Origin: Minisyncoccota bacterium
GTDB taxonomy: Bacteria; Patescibacteriota; Minisyncoccia; Phycocordibacterales; UBA1550
DNA: 64,000 nt
Reading direction: 5' to 3'
Assembly (NCBI GenBank): GCA_041660105.1
Contig: JBAZWZ010000001.1
Span: forward strand, 523-64,522
Position 1 is the first letter of the stretch. The number at the start of each line of letters is the position of its first letter. Made by a program: the position numbers and the translations under genes. Shown here piece by piece: positions 4,023 to 53,229 of the stretch. The notes beneath the pieces are model-generated. The model saw only the letters and a list, made by a program, of their open reading frames with translations. It made no database searches and had not been told where the DNA came from.

Positions 4023-6869
4023 CTATCCCTGACAACTCTCGCACAGACCCACTTCCTCTCCCCTCGCTACGCGGGCCATGAATTCGGCATCGGCTTTCTT
4101 CTGTAAATCAACTTGCGCCGACGGGGCTGCTGCGATTGAGATTTCTTCTTTGATTGATACTATGGTGTCGGCTGCCTTGACGGTAAAGTCGCGCTTGTGC
4201 GTGTTGCCGAACTCTGCGACGGACACGGTCGACTTCTCTACTTGTGATGCGCCGAGTGAGCGGAGGTAGTAGGTCGTCTTCAATCCTTTCTTCCAAGCGT
4301 AGAAGTAAATCTCTGAGAGCTCCTTGCCTGATGTGCCACGGAAGAAGATATTGAGTGACTGTGACTGGTCGATCCACTTTGCGCGACGTGCTGCGGCATC
4401 AATGAGCCAACGTGAATCAATCTCAAACACTTCCTTGTACTTCTTGCGTGTATCGCGTGGAATCTCGGCGATGCCTTGGATACTGCCGTCGTGGAACTTG
4501 ATCTTGTTCAACATATCGCGGCTCCAGAGTCCTTGGCGCTTCAAATCCTCGACGAGATACTTGTTGACTACGATGAAGTCCCCTTCTTTGTTGGACTTCA
4601 CATAAATGTTTTTGTAGATAGGCTCTACGCAAGGGATGCATCCTGCGAGGTTGGCGGTACTTGCGGTTGGCGCGATAGCCATCACGTTGCTGTTTCTCAT
4701 ACCGTGCTTCTTGATACTCTCGCGTACAGGAGTCCAGTCGAGTACACCATCACGCTCTACTTCAATCTTCTCGCCACGCTCCTTCTCGAGGAGGTCGACG
4801 GTGTCTTGAGGAAGAAGTCCGCGATCCCACTTGGAACCCTTGTAGGTCGAATACACACCACGCTCGCGGGCCAAGTCTGATGATGCGAGGATGGTGTAGT
4901 ATGCGACGACTTCCATACTCTCGTCTGCAAACTTCACAGCCTCTTCTGAGTCAAAGTCGATACCGAGGAGGTAGAGTGCATCGTGATATCCACGAACACC
5001 TAGTCCTACTGGGCGATGGAGGGTGCTACCACGACGAGCGTCCTCTGTGGGATAGAAGTTGACATCGATGACGTTGTCGAGCATACGCACTGCGCTTCTC
5101 GTCACGCTCTCAACGAGCTTGTGGTCAAACTTGCCGTCCTTGATAAACTTTGCGAAGTTGAGTGAGCCCAAGGTACATACTGCGGTTTCATTGGCAGAAG
5201 TGTTGAGCGTAATCTCGGTACAGAGGTTGGAGCTGTGTACGGTACCTACGTGGTCCTGTGGTGAGCGTACGTTGCAAGGGTCCTTCCATGTAATCCATGG
5301 GTGACCTGTCTCAAAGAGCATCGAAATCATCTTCTTCCAGATGTCGGTTGCGGGGACACGCTTGAAAAGGTTGATTTTGCCCTCGTCTGCCATCTTTTCG
5401 TACTCTTCGTAGCGCTTTTCGAATGCTGCGCCGTAAATCTCGTGAAGTTCGGGCACTTCTTCGGGAGAAAAGAGTGTCCACTCCTTGCCATCACGAACAC
5501 GCTTCATAAAGAGGTCGGGGATCCAGTTGGCAGTGTTGACGTCGTGGGTGCGACGGCGCTCATCGCCCGTGTTCTTGCGGAGCTCGAGGAAGTCCTCAAT
5601 ATCGAGGTGCCATGTCTCGAGGTATACACAACCTGCGCCGCGGCGTTTGCCGGAGCGGTTGATGGCGAGGTTTACGTCGTTTGCGATCTTGAGGAATGGG
5701 ATAACACCCTGACTTCCTACACCTGTGCCCTTGATGAATCCACCCGTAGCGCGTAGTGGTGTCCAGCTCGTACCCGTACCGCCTGACCACTTCAAATACT
5801 GCGCATTGTCGCCAAATGTCTTGAAGATAGCGTCGAGGGAGTCGGGCACGACATTGAGGAAACAGTTTGCAAGCTGAGCTTTCTTTGAGCCTGCTTGGAA
5901 GAGTGTGCGGCCGCCTGGGGTGTAGAGGAAACGTGAAAGCACTTCGTAGAACTCAAGCGCGACACGCTCGCGGTCTTCCTTCTTCTCATTGAGCGCTGTC
6001 CCCATCGCGATGCGCATCCAGAACATCTGAGGAGTCTCCACAGGTTTCTTGGTCACCGTACTCTCTTGGAAATAACGTGACGCAAGAATCTCAAGTCCCA
6101 TATATTCAAAGAGCTCGTCGTTCTCAAGCTCGAACTTCTTCACGAGAAGGTCGAGATCGAACTCAAGCATACGTGGGTCGAGATTGCCCTCGGCGACTGC
6201 GTGCTTGATATTCTCGGGGAACATTTTTGCGTGAGCGGAGAGAATGTCCTTTGGCTCAAAGTTGGTGCCGAAGACGTCACGGTAGAGCTTCTGGAGGAGG
6301 AGGCGTGCTGCGACCTTGGAATATGCGGGGTCAAGCTCGATCATTGAGCGCACAACCTGAATAATCGCACGGGTAATCTCCGTCGTCGTGACACCTTCAT
6401 ACATACTGAGCTTGAGCTGAGTGAGGATTGATTCCTCATCGATGGTCTTTTCATAGCCCTCCGTCACACGGGAGAGGGTTTTCTTGATTTTTGCCTCTGA
6501 ATACGGCTCAGTCTTGCCAGAACGCTTGGTAATCGAGAGCTTTTTCTCTTCAATCTTCTCGATAACCTCTTCCTGCTTCTTTTCGCGGATCTTTTCGTGT
6601 TCGTAGCGATAAATAATATAGGCTTTTGCCACTTCGTGGTAGCCCTCGTTCATAATAACGAGCTCAACAACGTCCTGAATCTTCTCCACCGAGGGAATCT
6701 GCCCGTATCCACCGTCTTTTACTGCCATCAAAACGGCTGAGGTCATTTCAGCAAGCTTTTCCTCCGTTATGGGGGTGTTGCATGCACTGAAAGCTTTACT
6801 AATCGCAGTCGTGATTTTCTCCGGAGAGAACTCTACGATAGTACCGTTTCGTTTTTGGACCTGATTCAT
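4023..6869 (-). CDS. nrdA: Ribonucleotide reductase class I large (alpha) subunit with N-terminal ATP-cone
   Basis: 948 aa; ATP-cone (VQKRNGTIVEFSPEKI), catalytic NLCTEI and PGGRTL motifs, C-terminal CESC redox pair. Confidence 0.9.
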   Translation of the reverse strand: MNQVQKRNGTIVEFSPEKITTAISKAFSACNTPITEEKLAEMTSAVLMAVKDGGYGQIPSVEKIQDVVELVIMNEGYHEVAKAYIIYRYEHEKIREKKQEEVIEKIEEKKLSITKRSGKTEPYSEAKIKKTLSRVTEGYEKTIDEESILTQLKLSMYEGVTTTEITRAIIQVVRSMIELDPAYSKVAARLLLQKLYRDVFGTNFEPKDILSAHAKMFPENIKHAVAEGNLDPRMLEFDLDLLVKKFELENDELFEYMGLEILASRYFQESTVTKKPVETPQMFWMRIAMGTALNEKKEDRERVALEFYEVLSRFLYTPGGRTLFQAGSKKAQLANCFLNVVPDSLDAIFKTFGDNAQYLKWSGGTGTSWTPLRATGGFIKGTGVGSQGVIPFLKIANDVNLAINRSGKRRGAGCVYLETWHLDIEDFLELRKNTGDERRRTHDVNTANWIPDLFMKRVRDGKEWTLFSPEEVPELHEIYGAAFEKRYEEYEKMADEGKINLFKRVPATDIWKKMISMLFETGHPWITWKDPCNVRSPQDHVGTVHSSNLCTEITLNTSANETAVCTLGSLNFAKFIKDGKFDHKLVESVTRSAVRMLDNVIDVNFYPTEDARRGSTLHRPVGLGVRGYHDALYLLGIDFDSEEAVKFADESMEVVAYYTILASSDLARERGVYSTYKGSKWDRGLLPQDTVDLLEKERGEKIEVERDGVLDWTPVRESIKKHGMRNSNVMAIAPTASTANLAGCIPCVEPIYKNIYVKSNKEGDFIVVNKYLVEDLKRQGLWSRDMLNKIKFHDGSIQGIAEIPRDTRKKYKEVFEIDSRWLIDAAARRAKWIDQSQSLNIFFRGTSGKELSEIYFYAWKKGLKTTYYLRSLGASQVEKSTVSVAEFGNTHKRDFTVKAADTIVSIKEEISIAAAPSAQVDLQKKADAEFMARVARGEEVGLCESCQG

Positions 6870-10736: not shown

Positions 10737-11963
10737 CTATTCGTATCGCATCGCTTCGATAGGATTCAAGTTTGCGGCGCGACGCGCTGGATAATATCCA
10801 AACACGATACCCGTCATTGCAGAAACTCCAAACGCCAGTATCACCGAAGTAAGTGAGACACTTGTTTTTACGAGCCCGGACAGGTTGACCACATACGATA
10901 TTCCCCACCCGAGCATAATCCCCGCGAGTCCGCCAATCACCGTGAGGGCGACAGCCTCGGCGAGAAACTGTGTCGAGATGTCTTTTTTCTTTGCACCTAT
11001 CGCTTTGCGAAGCCCTATCTCACGCGTGCGCTCAGTCACCGTCGTAAGCATCATATTCATAATACCGATACCACCCACGAGAAGTGAGATACCACCAATA
11101 GCAGCAAGGAGTGTCGTGAGTGTCGAAGTAACCCCTGACGCCGTCGCGAGAATATCGTTTTGATTCATAATACTAAAATCAGCAGCGGTGGAGTCACTTA
11201 TTTTGTGCCTATTCAAAAGAAGCGCTGTAATATCTTCCTGCACTTGGGACATTGCATCCTTGCTTGCTGCCTGTACCGCAATAGTGCTCAGATATTTGTC
11301 CCCCGAGAAGTATCGCTCAGAGCTCATCACGGGGATAAATATCACATCATCCTGACTCTGGAAACCAGTCCCACCCTTTGCGACCGTGACACCAACAACT
11401 TTGAACTCAAGCCCCTTGATACGGATACTCTTGCCCACCACATCAGTCGCATCAGCACCAAAGAGATCATCGCGCGTCGTCGGACCTATCACAGCAACTT
11501 TTGCTGCTGCTTCATTTTGCGCATCGGTAATAAAATTTCCCTCAGCAATTTCCACATTGCGAATCTGTGGATACGCTGAGGTAACACCCGTGACACTCGT
11601 GTTGGTGTTGGTCCCCTTCGCGGTTACTTGATACCTTCCTGACACTTGCGAATCGACCGCTAAAACATTTTCAATTTCGGTTGCAATGGCCTTCGCATCT
11701 TCGTTGGTGAGCGTTTTCGCGTTGCCACGTCCTCCACTCGCTCCAAATCCCTGCGTGCGCTGTGCCCCTGGCGTAACCTGAATCAAGTTTGAACCGAGAG
11801 ACTCGATACTTGAGGAGATACTGTTTGATGCGCCGGTGCCGATAGACACCATCGCGATAACCGAAGAAATACCGATCACAATACCAAGCATCGTGAGCCC
11901 AGAGCGAGCCTTGTTGGCAGAGAGCGCCGTGTATGTTTCGTGAATTATGTCGTTGACTTTCAT
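10737..11963 (-). CDS. ABC transporter permease, MacB/FtsX-like
   Basis: 408 aa; N-terminal TM, large periplasmic domain, C-terminal FtsX-like 3-TM module. Confidence 0.8.
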   Translation of the reverse strand: MKVNDIIHETYTALSANKARSGLTMLGIVIGISSVIAMVSIGTGASNSISSSIESLGSNLIQVTPGAQRTQGFGASGGRGNAKTLTNEDAKAIATEIENVLAVDSQVSGRYQVTAKGTNTNTSVTGVTSAYPQIRNVEIAEGNFITDAQNEAAAKVAVIGPTTRDDLFGADATDVVGKSIRIKGLEFKVVGVTVAKGGTGFQSQDDVIFIPVMSSERYFSGDKYLSTIAVQAASKDAMSQVQEDITALLLNRHKISDSTAADFSIMNQNDILATASGVTSTLTTLLAAIGGISLLVGGIGIMNMMLTTVTERTREIGLRKAIGAKKKDISTQFLAEAVALTVIGGLAGIMLGWGISYVVNLSGLVKTSVSLTSVILAFGVSAMTGIVFGYYPARRAANLNPIEAMRYE

Positions 11964-49862: not shown

Positions 49863-50747
49863 CTACAGCTCCCTCTCTGCTTCAATGAACTCCATTATCT
49901 CCCCATCCTCGAGAACAGCGTCAACATTTGAGGTCTCTACATCTGTGCGATGGTCCTTTACCATCTTGTAGGGATGGAGGACATACGAGCGGATCTGGTT
50001 CCCCCATTCAATCTCCGTGGTCTTACTAATATACATACCACTCTCTGCTGCCTTCCTCTCGTCGTCCTGCTTTTTAAAAAGTTTACCTTTGAGAATTTGA
50101 ATTGCCTTCTCGCGATTCTGCTCCTGAGAGCGCTCAGTCTCTACGTGTACGGCAATATTGGTCGGAATATGCACCACACGCACGGCAGTCTCGCGTTTGT
50201 TTACATTTTGCCCTCCGGGACCTGACGAACGGCTGAATTCGATTCTAATATCGTCAGCAGGGATTACAATCTCATCGTTTGCGCCGTCCTTGAAATCGGG
50301 AATAACTTCAACCATCGAAAACGAAGTATGACGAAGGCTCTTCGCATTAAAAGGAGAGATGCGCACGAGGCGATGCACGCCCGATTCGTTTTTGAGCATA
50401 CCGTATACATTCTTCCCGTGAATCTCGAGCGTGATGTTGCGATAGCCACCGTGATCGTTTTTGTTTTCGTGGAGAAGTTTCACTTCGAAATTTTGTTTCT
50501 CAAAAAACTTGAGATACATACGCACGAGCATCCCCGAAAAATCCTCTGCATCATCCCCACCTGCGCCTGAGAAAATAGTCATCACCGCATTGCCACGGTC
50601 GTACTTGCCGACACCTGCGATTTTTTCCTTGAGCTCTGCGATTTCCTTGATGACAGCTTGCGCGCGAGCTTTGTCAGACCAAAAATCCACCGAGGCCATT
50701 TCAGCTTCGAGTTCTACAATTTTCGCTTGGAGTTCTTCTTTTGACAT
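49863..50747 (-). CDS. prfB: Peptide chain release factor 2 (short form, no frameshift site)
   Basis: 294 aa; SPF tripeptide (RISPFNAK) and GGQ (SGPGGQNVNK). Begins at the position that follows the frameshift site in frameshifted RF2s. Confidence 0.85.
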   Translation of the reverse strand: MSKEELQAKIVELEAEMASVDFWSDKARAQAVIKEIAELKEKIAGVGKYDRGNAVMTIFSGAGGDDAEDFSGMLVRMYLKFFEKQNFEVKLLHENKNDHGGYRNITLEIHGKNVYGMLKNESGVHRLVRISPFNAKSLRHTSFSMVEVIPDFKDGANDEIVIPADDIRIEFSRSSGPGGQNVNKRETAVRVVHIPTNIAVHVETERSQEQNREKAIQILKGKLFKKQDDERKAAESGMYISKTTEIEWGNQIRSYVLHPYKMVKDHRTDVETSNVDAVLEDGEIMEFIEAEREL

Positions 50748-50764
50748 AATGAGCAGTATAACAG

Positions 50765-50806
50765 AAAATGCCCCTGATTCGACAGAGTCGAATCAGGGGC
50801 ATTTTC
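50765..50806. terminator. Bidirectional terminator between the tRNA-Thr genes and prfB
   Basis: gcccctgattcgac agag tcgaatcaggggc with an A-run and a T-run. Confidence 0.8.
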
Positions 50807-50812
50807 ATTTAG

Positions 50813-50885
50813 AGCCAACCCCGGGAATTGAACCCGGAACCTACGGTTTACGATACCGTTGCTCTACCAGTTGAGCTAGGTCGGC
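50813..50885 (-). tRNA. tRNA-Thr (anticodon CGT)
   Basis: GCCGACC acceptor, D-arm AGCTCAACTGGTAGAGC, anticodon loop ATCGTAA, T-arm GGGTTCAATTCCCGG, discriminator T. Confidence 0.85.
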
Positions 50886-50887
50886 AA

Positions 50888-50960
50888 AAACAGTCAAAAG
50901 TCCAAAGTGTAAAGTCGAAAGTAAACTCAATAATGCATTTACTTTTACTTTATGAACTTT
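50888..50960. repeat. Inverted pair of GACTTT-octamer repeats upstream of tRNA-Thr(CGT)
   Basis: cagtcaaaagtccaaagtgtaaagtcgaaagt and acttttactttatgaactttatggactttcaact. Confidence 0.55.
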
Positions 50961-50978
50961 ATGGACTTTCAACTGTCC

Positions 50979-51054
50979 TGGAGCCGCTGATCGGGATTGA
51001 ACCGATGACCTCGTCCTTACCAAGGACGCACTCTACCAACTGAGCTACAACGGC
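50979..51054 (-). tRNA. tRNA-Thr (anticodon GGT), CCA encoded
   Basis: GCCGTTG acceptor, anticodon stem-loop CGTCC TTGGTAA GGACG, T-arm ATCGG TTCAATC CCGAT, 3' CCA present. Confidence 0.85.
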
Positions 51055-51149
51055 TTATTATACTTTTGTAACATTCTGGCATTATCAGCCAAAACAGTTA
51101 CAACGGCTTATTTTGACACTTGGTCACAATACACTATTCAGCCTCTTTT

Positions 51150-51190
51150 TTCAATAAAACAAAAAGGGTCGTACATGACGACCCTTTTAA
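51150..51190 (-). terminator. Rho-independent terminator of the small Cys-rich gene
   Basis: aagggtcgtacatgacgaccctt followed by a U-run on the minus strand. Confidence 0.7.
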
Positions 51191-51200
51191 TCTCCTACTA

Positions 51201-51380
51201 TTACTGAGCAGCTGCGAGGATTTCCCGCAGAGGCTCATTTGACCCTGCTTCAACTACACAGAGGACAGCCATCGCTTGATCATGGCTGACGGGGTGCCCC
51301 GACACACACGGACAAACCTTCATAATTTCGCTTTCCGGATCAAGATATTCCTTTGCATCTCCACAAAGACAACAATTCAT
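51201..51380 (-). CDS. Small Cys-rich protein (59 aa: MNCCLCGDAKEY..CPCVSGHP..)
   Basis: AGGAG RBS 7 nt upstream of the ATG; 6 Cys plus 2 His suggest metal binding; terminator downstream. Confidence 0.5.
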   Translation of the reverse strand: MNCCLCGDAKEYLDPESEIMKVCPCVSGHPVSHDQAMAVLCVVEAGSNEPLREILAAAQ

Positions 51381-51427
51381 TTTTTTCTCCTGTGAACAAA
51401 TCAGCCTGCACAATACCATAAATTATA

Positions 51428-51491
51428 CGACCGCGCAAATACAGAAAAACCTAACGAAAATTCATTAGGTTTTTCTGTATTTGCGCGGTCG
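51428..51491. repeat. Conserved-end long hairpin 1 (cgaccgcgcaaataca ... tgtatttgcgcggtcg)
   Basis: About 27-bp stem. The terminal 16 bp of each arm are identical to hairpin 2 at 51721-51780, while the interiors differ with compensatory changes. Confidence 0.75.
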
Positions 51492-51727
51492 ATGGTCCGC
51501 GGTCACGAGTTACTAAGTGTGCTCAGGTGAGTACACCCTGCGCGCACTAAGTACTCTCGACCCCGCCTCACTGTCGCCTTGCGACATGCTCCCGATTTCT
51601 TACACGGTACTCCGAGTGTTGAAATCGCAGTGCCCTAGATTTATCGTGGCTTACGGCTTTCGAGTCTCCTCGCGGTTCGATTTTCTAATCGCCAGCGCAA
51701 GTGAAGCAGTTCACTTGCTTCGACCGC
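51484..51727 (-). pseudogene. tRNA-Asp-derived element: tRNA-Asp-like 5' and 3' ends flanking a ~170-nt non-tRNA insert
   Basis: Minus strand begins GCGGTCGaAGC (10 of 11 match to the tRNA-Asp 5' end) and ends GGACCATCGACCGC G CAAATACA (tRNA-Asp 3' end plus trailer). The interior has no D or anticodon arms. Confidence 0.5.
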
Positions 51728-51780
51728 GCAAATACAAAAAATCACGGCAATTGCCGTGATTTTTTGTATTTGCGCGGTCG
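51721..51780. terminator. Conserved-end hairpin 2 / terminator immediately 3' of tRNA-Asp
   Basis: On the minus strand the tRNA-Asp acceptor 3' strand runs into UCACGGCAA UUGCCGUGA followed by UUUUUUG. The distal arm regenerates GCGGUCG. Confidence 0.75.
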
Positions 51781-51846
51781 ATGGGACTCGAACCCACGAC
51801 CCCTCACGTGACAGGCGAGTGCTCTAACCAGCTGAGCTACGACCGC
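51773..51846 (-). tRNA. tRNA-Asp (anticodon GTC)
   Basis: GCGGTCG TA GCTC AGCTGGTTA GAGC A CTCGC CTGTCAC GTGAG GGGTC GTGGG TTCGAGT CCCAT CGACCGC G. Confidence 0.9.
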
Positions 51847-51949
51847 AAATTGTACTTCTTCTGCAACCTGACCCTTCTCATTTAGTCCGATATGCACTCG
51901 CCGAGGCGAACGCTCGCTATCTTCTTAATCTGAGCTGAGCTACGACCGC
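51847..51949 (-). pseudogene. Degenerate tRNA-Asp-derived repeat unit A (103 nt)
   Basis: Starts with 17 nt identical to the tRNA-Asp 5' end (GCGGTCGTAGCTCAGCT), contains GAGCGTTCGCCT (D/anticodon stem remnant) and a mini-hairpin replacing the anticodon loop; no T-arm. Confidence 0.7.
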
Positions 51950-52052
51950 AAATTTTACTCTTTCTGCAACCAAACCTAACTCATTTAATCCGATATGCAC
52001 TCGCCTAGGCGAGTGCTCGCTATTTTCTTAATCTGAGCTGAGCTACGACCGC
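51950..52052 (-). pseudogene. Degenerate tRNA-Asp-derived repeat unit B (103 nt)
   Basis: About 90% identical to unit A; GCGGTCGTAGCTCAGCTCAGATTAAGAAAATAGCGAGCACTCGCCTAGGCGAGTGC... Confidence 0.7.
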
Positions 52053-52105
52053 AAATTTACTACTTTTGCATTCTAGCAGGAAACGTTCCGCGAAACAAAT
52101 GCGGG

Positions 52106-52177
52106 TGCCGATGAGTGGAATCGAACCACTGTCTAGGGCTTATGAGTCCCTCGTTCTGACCATTGAACTACACCGGC
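52106..52177 (-). tRNA. tRNA with CAT anticodon (Met/fMet/Ile2 type; three G-C pairs in the anticodon stem suggest an initiator)
   Basis: GCCGGTG TA GTTC AATGGTCA GAAC G AGGGA CTCATAA GCCCT AGAC AGTGG TTCGATT CCACT CATCGGC A. Confidence 0.7.
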
Positions 52178-52184
52178 TATAATT

Positions 52185-52865
52185 TTAATACTTCTTTTTT
52201 ACTGCATCAATCAACCCAAGTACTTCATATTTCAACCTAGAACTCTTTCGTACCTGCAAAGATAGGATACCATAATATGAATCATAATTCTCGTACACCT
52301 TTTTTTGCTTTATTTTTAGGAACACCTGATTCCCGAATTGCTCAATTGGTAGCTTCAACAGAACAGACCAGTATTCGATAACTTTCATAATCCTCGGACG
52401 ATGTATCTCGTTGATAAATATCCTCGGCATAAACTCCTCATCCTTTACGTTTAACACCCTCTCGTACCATTTCTTCATGACAAGAATAATTTCTGGATCA
52501 GAGTTAACAATCGCGAGTGCACTTCTGTCACTCTTTGTTCCCTCACCCCAGTAAAGACCTATGCCGAGCATGAGGAGATCCCTTTCAGTCATCTGACCAA
52601 CGGTCTCATAAGCTTTCTTTTTACAAACACTCATCCTATCCTGTTTCTTTTTGTGGTTCATTTCTGCACCAATCATTCTGCCCTTATGCCCAGCGCTTAT
52701 CGAATTCTGCGTAAGCTTATCTTTTTGCTTTTGAGATAAAACTATATCCTGACACCAGATACTCGCTGACCCTTTTGACACACCGAGTTCGGCTGCAATT
52801 GCTCCAATACTCCACCCTTTCTTTCTCAATTTTTGAGCCCTTATCTTTTCCTGGAACTTAGCCAT
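52185..52865 (-). CDS. HTH plus LAGLIDADG-like protein (putative free-standing homing endonuclease) in an AT-rich island
   Basis: 226 aa; N-terminal HTH (GWSIGAIAAELGVSKGSASIW); LLMLGIGLYWGEGTKS resembles a LAGLIDADG block. The stop is 8 nt from the tRNA-CAT 5' end. Confidence 0.45.
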   Translation of the reverse strand: MAKFQEKIRAQKLRKKGWSIGAIAAELGVSKGSASIWCQDIVLSQKQKDKLTQNSISAGHKGRMIGAEMNHKKKQDRMSVCKKKAYETVGQMTERDLLMLGIGLYWGEGTKSDRSALAIVNSDPEIILVMKKWYERVLNVKDEEFMPRIFINEIHRPRIMKVIEYWSVLLKLPIEQFGNQVFLKIKQKKVYENYDSYYGILSLQVRKSSRLKYEVLGLIDAVKKKY

Positions 52866-52906
52866 ATATACTATAATATCAGCTGTTCTAAAATAATCAA
52901 GGTGTG

Positions 52907-52954
52907 CGAATAAAGAATAACAGGTGTTATATGAACACCTGTTATTCTTTATTC
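52907..52954. terminator. Long AT-rich hairpin (21-bp stem) between the LAGLIDADG-like gene and tRNA-CAT #2
   Basis: cgaataaagaataacaggtgtt atatg aacacctgttattctttattcg. Confidence 0.6.
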
Positions 52955-52957
52955 GTG

Positions 52958-53029
52958 TTGCGGGGGCCCGAATCGAACGGGCGTCTTCAGGTTATGAGCC
53001 TGATGAGATACCGCTTCTCTACCCCGCTA
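52958..53029 (-). tRNA. tRNA with CAT anticodon (#2; A1-A72 mismatch)
   Basis: AGCGGGG TA GAGA AGCGGTA TCTC A TCAGG CTCATAA CCTGA AGAC GCCCG TTCGATT CGGGC CCCCGCA A. Confidence 0.65.
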
Positions 53030-53184
53030 TGTCTACCTATAACCAAATTTTCACTAAATCTCAATAGCGGCGAGATGACGCTTCCGAACCAGCTGGTTCG
53101 CCCCGGGTCATACCCGCTATGCTTCATTAATGAGAGACCCAACTATACCACCTTAGCCAAATTTTGCAAGGGTTAAACGCAAAG

Positions 53185-53229
53185 CGCTTTACCCACTTTT
53201 GACTTTAAGACTTTTGACTTTCGACTAGT
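53185..53229. repeat. GACTTT-octamer intergenic repeat (copy e)
   Basis: ttttgactttaagacttttgactttcgact. Confidence 0.6.

Follow-up and report, generated by a model that had tools for sequence, protein, structure and literature searches.

A family of small structured non-coding elements at the 3′ flank of tRNA genes in Patescibacteria, traced from a tRNA-Asp locus

This work describes a tRNA-Asp locus in a 64,000-nt stretch of DNA from a Minisyncoccota bacterium (contig JBAZWZ010000001.1), referred to here as the window, together with the family of small structured elements to which part of the locus belongs. Coordinates are those of the window except where a related locus is named, and features of the locus lie on the minus strand unless stated otherwise. 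On that strand, the gene order is ligA, gatA, tRNA-Met, a gene for a helix-turn-helix (HTH) protein, a second tRNA-Met, the tRNA-Asp locus, two tRNA-Thr genes, prfB, ftsE, ftsX, and pyrG. The locus itself comprises an intact tRNA-Asp gene, a 244-nt segment on its 3′ side, two tandem 103-nt units on its 5′ side, and two long palindromic hairpins (Table 1). The 244-nt segment is a degenerate, rearranged, weak-scoring member of a family of small non-coding structured elements of the Candidate Phyla Radiation (CPR)/Patescibacteria, located at the 3′ flank of genes for tRNA and transfer-messenger RNA (tmRNA). The family is apparently undescribed and absent from Rfam 15; a full-text literature search found no description of such a tRNA-flank element family.

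For comparison, 18 related loci were retrieved by an RF2 protein search, with one genome per species and RF2 identities of 97 to 65% (individual loci are designated by L numbers). All 18 prfB-related loci are labeled Patescibacteria (Yonathbacteria, Paceibacterota, Nomurabacteria, or Minisyncoccia). The order Met-Met-Asp-Thr-Thr-prfB is kept among these relatives, with local inversions and strongly varying spacer lengths. A conserved multi-tRNA operon in which every copy folds into a canonical cloverleaf was not seen: the relatives carry Met-Met-Asp-Thr-Thr, and the extra pieces are variable. The window derives from a bacterial chromosome of the CPR (Yonathbacteria/Paceibacteria) and not from a phage. 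A phage origin of the locus was rejected in view of its neighbors (pyrG, ftsEX, prfB, gatA, and ligA), and phage records match the tRNA alone.

In the initial annotation, made from the sequence of the window, the 244-nt segment was called a disrupted tRNA-Asp copy. The repeats, hairpins, and tRNA-like ends on which that label was based are all present where they had been placed. At its start, GCGGTCGAAGC agrees with tRNA-Asp at 10/11 positions, of which 7 follow trivially from complementarity to the acceptor 3′ strand, and its end consists of CCATCGACCGCG plus the trailer. The direct repeats of the tRNA-Asp 3′ end and trailer (D5/D7) are 95 to 96% identical, and CCATCGACCGCGCAAATACA occurs twice in the window, placing the 3′ part of the tRNA, in direct orientation, at either end of the segment. 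The segment has a predicted folding energy of −101.7 kcal/mol (z = −5.5), with 0 of 200 shuffles as good, and its features exceed chance. The label itself did not hold up. The ends are sense and antisense copies of the 3′ third of the adjacent tRNA, a layout that recurs next to tRNAs of 35 anticodons.

None of the D, anticodon, and T arms is present in the segment. When the segment and the 103-nt units were tested as tRNAs, ARAGORN called only six canonical tRNAs in the window, and Rfam RF00005 gave no match on 51484-51727 or 51847-52052 even at E values up to 10. A tRNA interrupted by a group I intron was rejected as an identity for the segment, since it contains neither a group I core nor tRNA arms; Intron_gpI had no match in 50700-53200 at E values up to 10, and the same model detects the intron-bearing tRNA-fMet of L041. 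No tmRNA was found in the window by ARAGORN or Rfam; L120 does contain a real tmRNA, with a family element 3′ of it. Other Rfam families gave no match to pieces of the locus even at an E value of 10. Self-cleaving ribozymes (hammerhead, twister, hatchet, pistol, hairpin, and HDV-like) had no Rfam match at E values up to 10 in the window and up to 1 in L083. RNase P, SRP, 6S, group II domain 5/6, and hammerhead RNAs were compared by eye only, and no likeness was seen.

A covariance model of the family (R1) retrieves 15 copies from the window and the 18 genome loci. A motif scan of metagenomes using an exact pattern for the H3 region (described below) gave at least 120 matches; metagenome counts given from here on are among the matches listed. 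In 100 metagenome loci, R1 finds 132 copies at an E value cutoff of 0.001. The exact H3-region pattern had no match in 2.9 million viral contigs. An Rfam 15 search of twelve family loci retrieved only tRNAs, one tmRNA, and one group I intron, with nothing at the elements.

Read along the tRNA strand, a full element begins with the trailer and terminator hairpin, followed by the trailer and the 3′ strand of the acceptor in antisense and by an optional hairpin, H1. Next comes the T-complement, which is antisense to the 3′ strand of the T-stem and to the T-loop, back to nucleotide 54. The core of ∼100 nt is a three-way junction consisting of helix H2, a GGG, and helix H3. The 3-bp base of H2 leads through a G-N-A/G-A internal loop and a 2-nt bulge to a variable tip. 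In H3, an 8-bp lower stem that includes a G·U pair is followed by a bulged purine and an upper stem, again with a variable tip. The element closes with a sense copy of the tRNA from nucleotide 56 through the 3′ end and trailer. The flanks vary with the tRNA (e.g., GCGGTCG for Asp in the window, GCGGCTG for Asp in L004, and GGTGTCG for Met) and the core is constant.

The core helices covary, and the fold is real. In an unfitted MAFFT alignment of 32 members, for which the structure was written by hand, 90.9% of cells pair, compared to 70.2% in column shuffles and 33 to 46% with slid partners; double-sided changes occur in 240 cells versus 70 in shuffles. Across the 132 model hits, whose alignment is fitted to the model, double changes are present in 36/37 pairs. 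G·U/U·G combinations outnumber A·C/C·A combinations by 238 to 70, or by 116 to 70 without the near-invariant G·U pair, an excess that gives modest support to the tRNA strand as the strand that most likely folds. The unpaired G-N-A/G-A, GGG, and bulged purine are 92 to 100% conserved; the GA, the 3′ strand of the C-stem, the GGG, and the H3 lower stem lie inside the search pattern, and the G-N-A and the bulged purine lie outside it. As an alternative to repeated duplication at the tRNA gene, the interior of the 244-nt segment had been proposed to be a structured RNA, and its structured character is borne out by this covariation. Slippage, which had also been offered, does not account for the interior, as simple slippage cannot yield a core common to hundreds of loci.

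Several parts of the element are less uniform. H1 is present in only about one-quarter of copies; its stem covaries around a constant loop, AACUGCUU, in L004, L005, L008, L011, L013, L024, L026, L027, L042, and L058, and it behaves as an independent module. Kissing of the H1 loop (CUGCU) with AGCAG in the H2 or H3 tips was considered, with two suggestive covariations seen by eye (L050 and L060), and was dropped because only 7 of 32 CUGCU copies have the partner. An H1 with loop AACUGCUU stands alone, with no core, 3′ of tRNA-Asp at L011:5163-5192, and one with loop AUCUGCUU lies in L018 (∼11090-11180) inside a 5′ partial copy upstream of tRNA-Gln, again with no core. The GNA/GA loop and a GAGCGACGGCGAG tip were also considered as a K-turn or K-loop, and no claim is made. 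A second cargo type, GCGGGCCGCAGCACYCGAAGAGRGTGCGTAGGTTTCGAGCTCACCAGAGCGAGAGGC, is nearly identical at L010:4196-4283 (tRNA-Met) and in L025 (minus strand, ∼6290-6380; tRNA-Lys); it has the same frame of T-complement and T-loop copy, without H3. Smaller cargos follow tRNA-Met in L005 and L006, and the first element in L029 is another.

Among the relatives, elements lie 3′ of tRNA-Asp (L001, L004, L005, L010, and L013), tRNA-Met (L004, L008, and L013), tRNA-Thr (L015), and tRNA-Gln (L015). For 81 of 110 cores located away from contig ends, a same-strand tRNA ends within 250 nt upstream (5.9 expected), and an opposite-strand tRNA lies within the same distance of none of the 110 (4.6 expected). 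The hosts cover 35 anticodons for 19 amino acids, and one top-scoring copy is 3′ of a tmRNA gene (L120). In 49 of the 86 tRNA-adjacent copies, the T-complement fits at least 10/12 positions of its own tRNA (nucleotides 54 to 65), a level that no shuffle reaches, and in 35 of the 86 the sense copy begins exactly at nucleotide 56, immediately past H3. The non-canonical T-loop TGCAATT of an intron-bearing tRNA-fMet is mirrored by antisense GGAATTGCA. Since the antisense tracks an unusual T-loop, the GAA preceding H2 is no fixed junction motif but the antisense of nucleotides 54 to 56. In a second subtype, T-loop parts are missing, and antisense and sense copies of the last few tRNA nucleotides plus the trailer close the element. 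The family exists, its structure-bearing strand is most likely the tRNA strand, and its flanks are tailored to each tRNA. The tRNA-fMet with the T-loop TGCAATT (L041:4310-4570) has its anticodon loop split by a group I intron (58.6 bits with Rfam Intron_gpI), and the family element lies 3′ of the gene.

The window copy departs from this consensus in several respects. R1 matches only its inner part, 51492-51608(−), at 29.7 bits (E = 6e-5), where typical members score 50 to 110 bits. The family motif GAGGCGGGGTCGAG is found at 51556-51569. The T-complement, GACTCGAA(+GG), matches tRNA-Asp exactly over 8 nt and at 2 more past a 1-nt bulge; it sits at the family-homologous place, with A-GCC-GTA directly after it. 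H2 carries an atypical extra ∼65 nt and a second, imperfect start (GAAA-TCG-GGA). H3 has the lower stem GUCGAGAG/CUCGUGAC with its G·U pair, a bulged A, an upper stem (UACUUAG/CUUAGUA), and a variable tip. In the distal sense copy, the last 12 nt are exact (CCATCGACCGCG, 51484-51495) and the T-loop part is altered, which leaves the closing helix weak. An extra hairpin, 3′ of H1 on the tRNA strand, holds AATCGAACC, the complement of a GGTTCGATT T-loop from which the tRNA-Asp T-loop differs, and resembles the 5′ start of the "type 2" elements in L010 and L025. Overall, the window copy looks like an old, rearranged, or composite family member.

Table 1. Features of the tRNA-Asp locus, in window coordinates
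Feature	Position	Strand	Basis and remarks
Extended −10-like box TGCTAGAAT	52070-52078	−	Upstream of unit A; read from sequence
Unit A, 103 nt	51950-52052	−	Repeats, alignment, fold −33.4 kcal/mol, z = −3.6
Unit B, 103 nt	51847-51949	−	87% identical to unit A in register; z = −1.1
Intact tRNA-Asp(GTC)	51773-51846	−	ARAGORN; Rfam RF00005, 67.4 bits; CCA not encoded
Hairpin 1	51720-51781	both	Perfect 62-bp palindrome; 31-nt arms, 100% complementary; 0-nt loop
244-nt segment	51484-51727	−	Begins GCGGTCGAAGC, ends CCATCGACCGCG plus trailer
Accessory hairpin H1	51697-51718	−	Stem GCAAGTG/CACTTGC, loop AACTGCTT
Extra hairpin	51674-51693	−	GGCGATT-AGAA-AATCG(AA)CC; seen in sequence and fold
T-complement GGAGACTCGAA	51659-51669	−	Antisense to tRNA-Asp T-loop and T-stem 3′ strand TTCGAGTCCC
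Helix H2	51565-51657	−	Base GCC...GGC and GTA/GA internal loop conserved (versus parsed H2 of 92 members)
Junction GGG and helix H3	51502-51564	−	Motif search, model match, covariation
Distal sense copy of tRNA-Asp 3′ end	51484-51501	−	C-GCGGA-CCATCGACCGCG
Hairpin 2	51428-51491	both	Near-perfect 64-bp palindrome; 31-nt arms, 97% complementary

Both long hairpins are the tRNA-Asp terminator palindrome, lengthened into the acceptor strand and then repeated. Hairpin 1, correctly described at the outset as built from the acceptor strand and trailer, consists of the acceptor 3′ strand and trailer (5′ arm), an A-run/T-run terminator stem, and the inverted complement of these; it may serve as a terminator or an RNase III site. 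Hairpin 2 consists of a trailer copy, a different terminator stem, and an inverted copy with the end GCGCGGTCG. The two have the outer 16 to 21 nt in common and unrelated inner stems. The identity of their 16-nt outer ends is thus as the initial annotation had it, and the supposed compensatory change of the interior comes down to two different terminator stems. Terminator hairpins extended into the tRNA 3′ end are also found in L005, L010, L015, L045, L046, and L120. Elsewhere in the window, near-perfect hairpins lie directly 3′ of tRNA-Met 52957-53028 (52907-52955; 22-nt arms, 100%) and of tRNA-Thr 50812-50885 (50759-50811; 25-nt arms, 92%). Long palindromic terminators 3′ of tRNAs seem to be a habit of this genome.

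The two tandem 103-nt units on the 5′ side, each with the first 17 nt of tRNA-Asp, are likewise present as first reported. They are distinct from the 244-nt element and specific to this lineage, in which a 5′ fragment of tRNA-Asp, folded on its own antisense, was duplicated in tandem. Each unit runs from a leader and tRNA-Asp nucleotides 1 to 17 through a filler, nucleotides 22 to 33 with their inverted complement, and a G·U-rich antisense of nucleotides 1 to 20 to a copy of the leader. In unit A, the hairpin from nucleotides 22 to 33 is GCACTCGCC-TA-GGCGAGTGC, and the whole unit folds as one closed hairpin; in unit B, pairing of the hairpin is kept through G·U pairs. The 22-mer AGCTGAGCTACGACCGCAAATT (plus strand; leader and tRNA-Asp start) occurs three times with 100% identity and 103-nt spacing. 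No such units exist in L001, the closest relative (97% RF2 identity), in which tRNA-Asp comes immediately after the same promoter and leader, or at any other locus. In the clade, partial 5′ copies positioned after the promoter and ahead of the tRNA occur at 9/228 tRNAs, including tRNA-fMet in three relatives, and 3′ repeats occur downstream of 43/228; reciprocal controls gave zero. Because partial copies recur on both sides, the 103-nt units fit a general habit of sense-plus-antisense duplication at tRNA genes, and they may be the 5′-side counterpart of the process that forms the elements. No shared core and no evidence of function were found for them. The box TGCTAGAAT upstream of unit A is likely the promoter of the tRNA-Asp transcription unit: TG(C/G/T)TAGAAT stands upstream of tRNA-Asp at equal distance in L001, L005, L006, L008, and L010, and a consensus promoter scanner made no call at the box.

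Occupancy differs between relatives, and tandem copies occur. In the window, tRNA-Met (52104-52177) is an empty site; its L010 orthologue is filled by an element of ∼150 nt that carries the second type of cargo and duplicates 17 nt of the tRNA end (GATTCCACTCATCGGCA). The tRNA-Asp flanks of L005 and L006 are near-identical, with an element only in L005; the difference is bounded by a 10-bp repeat and can therefore be read as an insertion or a deletion. In a Cys-Leu-Lys-Leu operon, elements lie behind all 4 tRNAs in L083 (two behind one), behind 3 in L025 (one of the second cargo type), and behind 1 in L113. Tandem copies are frequent, being identical in L026 and L042 and diverged in L041 and L062. 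Cores at least 88% identical stand behind different tRNAs on different contigs (Asp/Pro/Arg, Asp/Cys, and Ala/Arg). The window copy (Asp) and the L025 copy (Leu-taa) have in common the odd junction CTCGTGACC-GCGGA-CCATC, and both tRNAs have the same T-arm, a single case that suggests transfer between tRNA genes via T-arm identity.

A search for mobility genes covered 512 clustered open reading frames (ORFs) within 4 kb of elements at more than 100 loci, and no integrase, transposase, or reverse transcriptase recurs. The recurrent neighbors within 4 kb are RF2, an ABC transporter, IF2, FtsX, GatA, cysteine desulfurase, RuvX, and one HTH/LAGLIDADG-like family. No integrase was found among window ORFs at 46 to 58 kb. 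Between the two tRNA-Met genes of the window (52185-52865, minus strand) lies a 226-aa protein with an N-terminal HTH_23 and a C-terminal domain with an invariant LYWxEG. It has 181 homologues, of which those with a named source are from Paceibacterota/Patescibacteria; an exact look-up of the neighboring protein gave no match. Its AlphaFold2 model has a pLDDT of 93, and the highest-probability Foldseek matches in the PDB are to the LAGLIDADG endonuclease I-DmoI, a weak resemblance (probability, 0.87 to 0.96; E value, 0.18 to 0.4; TM, ∼0.3). The family occurs within 4 kb of an element in 7 metagenome loci. The protein is possibly an endonuclease or maturase, and any connection with the element is conjectural. 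In L011, tRNA-Met and tRNA-Asp are separated by an ORF (4400-5000) in which LAGLIDADG-type motifs were recognized by eye; in L004, only a remnant of its 3′ end is left there.

Other observations concern the surrounding genes. The RF2 ORF of the window (49863-50747, minus strand) has only 294 aa and starts 65 nt past tRNA-Thr; the Pfam PCRF profile matched it only from position 94, and neither its N-terminal portion nor the frameshift region typical of prfB was located. Small cysteine-rich ORFs with CxxC pairs and their own −10-like box lie 3′ of the tRNA-Asp element in the window (51201-51419, minus strand), at L001:4230-4530, and at L004:4930-5160, and are absent where relatives have short Asp-Thr spacers; the window ORF has no match in Pfam, PHROG, or NCBIfam. 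A plus-strand ORF at 51517-51759 was rejected as protein coding, given indels of many lengths between relatives. In the tRNA cluster upstream of prfB, single tRNAs or the entire Met-Met-Asp block are inverted relative to Thr-Thr-prfB in L002, L012, L013, L015, L016, and L018. These inversions are consistent with recombination between inverted copies of tRNA ends.

Taken jointly, the results are best explained by a non-autonomous element that inserts into tRNA genes at T-loop nucleotides 55/56 or at the 3′ end, keeps the tRNA intact, is expressed by read-through, and is targeted by pairing or homology without a sequence-specific recombinase. We give this explanation a probability of roughly 55%. 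The point of entry would be nucleotides 55/56 of the T-loop or, for the second subtype, the extreme 3′ end of the tRNA gene, and insertion would bring or create a duplicate of the downstream tRNA part, so that the gene stays intact. Since the same core occurs at 35 anticodons and no recombinase is linked to it, target recognition probably relies on base pairing with the antisense segment built into the element, or on homology within the conserved T-arm, and not on a sequence-specific protein. The elements have no promoter of their own and are positioned inside tRNA operons, which makes expression by read-through, as part of tRNA precursors, probable. More tentatively, they could represent a new class of nucleic acid-guided mobile element, in which a three-way-junction RNA of ∼100 nt, either a ribozyme or the scaffold for a trans-acting enzyme, would use its antisense as a programmable guide to home to T-loop nucleotides 55/56 of any tRNA or tmRNA gene and would rebuild the 3′ end of the gene on insertion.

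A number of points weigh against insertion of a mobile element, or limit how far the data carry it. Neither a mobility enzyme nor a free form or transposition intermediate of the element was found. Sites that are empty in one relative and filled in another fit gain or loss, and L006 could be a deletion between the 10-bp repeats; the polarity of insertion is ambiguous, with the Met pair indicating one direction and the Asp pair the other. A clear antisense segment is present in only ∼57% of tRNA-adjacent copies. The P1 helix and H2 base of the window copy are imperfect, and with its low score it may therefore be non-functional. In the MAFFT alignment, helices 2 and 3 were partly preselected by the parser; helices 1, 4, and 6 were not and behave in the same way. 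Conservation of the motif positions is biased because the family was collected with a strict motif. The taxonomic assignment to CPR covers the 18 genome loci. Finally, the high conservation of the core, cotranscription with tRNA, and streamlined genomes fit a host function at least as well as parasitism.

Such a function would be that of a tRNA-linked non-coding RNA of benefit to the host, transcribed with the tRNA and released either by the enzymes of tRNA processing or through RNase III cleavage at the long hairpin. The antisense would then pair with the T-arm of the cognate tRNA or pre-tRNA and might thereby chaperone it, signal its processing or quality control, or guide a protein bound to the three-way junction, which would explain why each tRNA needs its own adjacent copy. 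This reading accommodates the strong conservation and covariation of the core and its position on the sense strand between operon tRNAs without terminators (e.g., L054 and L083). In L004, at tRNA-Gln of L015, and in the window, the antisense is perfect to the real tRNA where the distal T-part has drifted, and the conserved unpaired G-N-A/G-A, GGG, and bulged purine suggest a platform for binding protein or RNA. However, occupancy is patchy between close relatives, many tRNAs have no element, and tandem and nested copies occur. Antisense and sense decay about equally (17 versus 22 cases), and flank decay considered for asymmetry between guide and closing helix showed none that was clear. The antisense is already paired in cis in full-length copies. 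Nor does the family resemble a modification guide: its consensus has complementarity to the tRNA T-arm and no C/D or ACA boxes, with no box C/D or H/ACA element, and the best small nucleolar RNA (snoRNA)-like Rfam match, sR44, scores 15.5 bits against a threshold of 45. We consider a host-beneficial RNA rather unlikely, if still a serious contender and the main rival.

Two further explanations are less likely. Integrase islands or prophages could have inserted at the T-loop of tRNA-Asp and later been deleted, leaving attL/attR-like repeats. The direct repeats from T-loop to 3′ end and trailer fit such scars, and T-loop and 3′-end sublocations and tmRNA targets are reportedly classical for tyrosine-integrase islands. 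The att-like duplication proposed in the initial annotation is right in one respect, in that the 3′ part of the tRNA is repeated at the borders of the segment, as it is at integration sites; no recombinase recurs within 4 kb at more than 100 loci. An integrase family normally has one tRNA target, but here the interior is a conserved, covarying core in >130 copies at 35 anticodons, the motif is missing from the 2.9 million viral contigs, and phage records match only the tRNA, which together make this origin improbable. The elements might instead be mere mutational by-products, neither functional nor mobile, of palindrome-driven template switching, fold-back synthesis, or slippage at highly transcribed tRNA genes. 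The 62-bp palindrome with its 0-nt loop and the near-perfect 64-bp palindrome, the sense-plus-antisense architecture on both the 5′ side (103-nt units) and the 3′ side, the counts of 5′ copies and 3′ repeats against zero in controls, and the tRNA inversions among relatives all speak for processes of this kind, and the 103-nt units and the palindrome extension probably did arise in this way. As an account of the whole they are very improbable, since they cannot explain why a common three-way junction, with covarying helices, turns up at unrelated tRNAs across many genomes.

If the elements are mobile, as we favor, they would constitute a tiny element retargetable to dozens of tRNA genes without a linked recombinase, and pairing with a built-in antisense would be a principle undescribed for insertion into tRNA genes and of interest as a programmable system. 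If they are host RNAs, they would be tRNA-specific companion RNAs in minimal genomes, with a bearing on tRNA maturation or control in CPR. In either case, they represent a covariation-supported RNA structure that is abundant in metagenome contigs and missing from Rfam 15, and they account for the recurrent "pseudo-tRNA" fragments and long palindromes near tRNAs in CPR annotations.

Several known systems share features with the family. Integrative elements that target tRNA or tmRNA genes, cis-mobilizable elements (CIMEs), and satellites are alike in T-loop or 3′-end insertion, a duplicated gene part, tandem accretion, and variable presence. In contrast to integrative elements and CIMEs, the family is 100 to 250 nt, non-coding, and without an integrase nearby, with one folded core at 35 anticodons; unlike att sites, it carries an antisense copy of the target. 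IS110 bridge RNAs, IS200/605 guides, and the exon-binding sequences of group I/II introns likewise place a short target complement beside a conserved, retargetable folded RNA. The family differs from these in having no transposase, reverse transcriptase, or intron core and no group I/II or IS-RNA Rfam match at the element, and the guide role of its antisense is only putative. Compared to IS110 bridge RNA in particular, the loops of H2 and H3 (only 3x2 nt and 1 to 2 nt) are far too small, and no transposase is a neighbor. Identity with TIGR-Tas, which in CPR has arrays of 36-nt guides (PMC12045711), was rejected, as such arrays are unlike the tRNA-flank element.

REP/BIME, Correia/NEMIS, and MITE-like repeats are also small, non-coding, multicopy, hairpin-rich, and cotranscribed, and lie after genes near terminators. 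REP/BIME and Correia/NEMIS, however, have fixed termini in place of sense and antisense flanks taken from the target, are tied to no single gene class, and have no covarying three-way junction, and the family differs on each count. Plant tRNA-snoRNA dicistrons, mascRNA/MALAT1, and ROOL/GOLLD offer precedents for an RNA that adjoins a tRNA and is probably released by tRNA-processing enzymes, but they carry no copies of the neighboring T-arm and are not repeated behind most tRNA species. The folded single-stranded att sites of CTX phages come close in another way, as their sense/antisense fold imitates a double-stranded target and tandem copies are frequent; the family differs in having no phage genome and no dif or Xer context, with no evidence of a single-stranded DNA stage.

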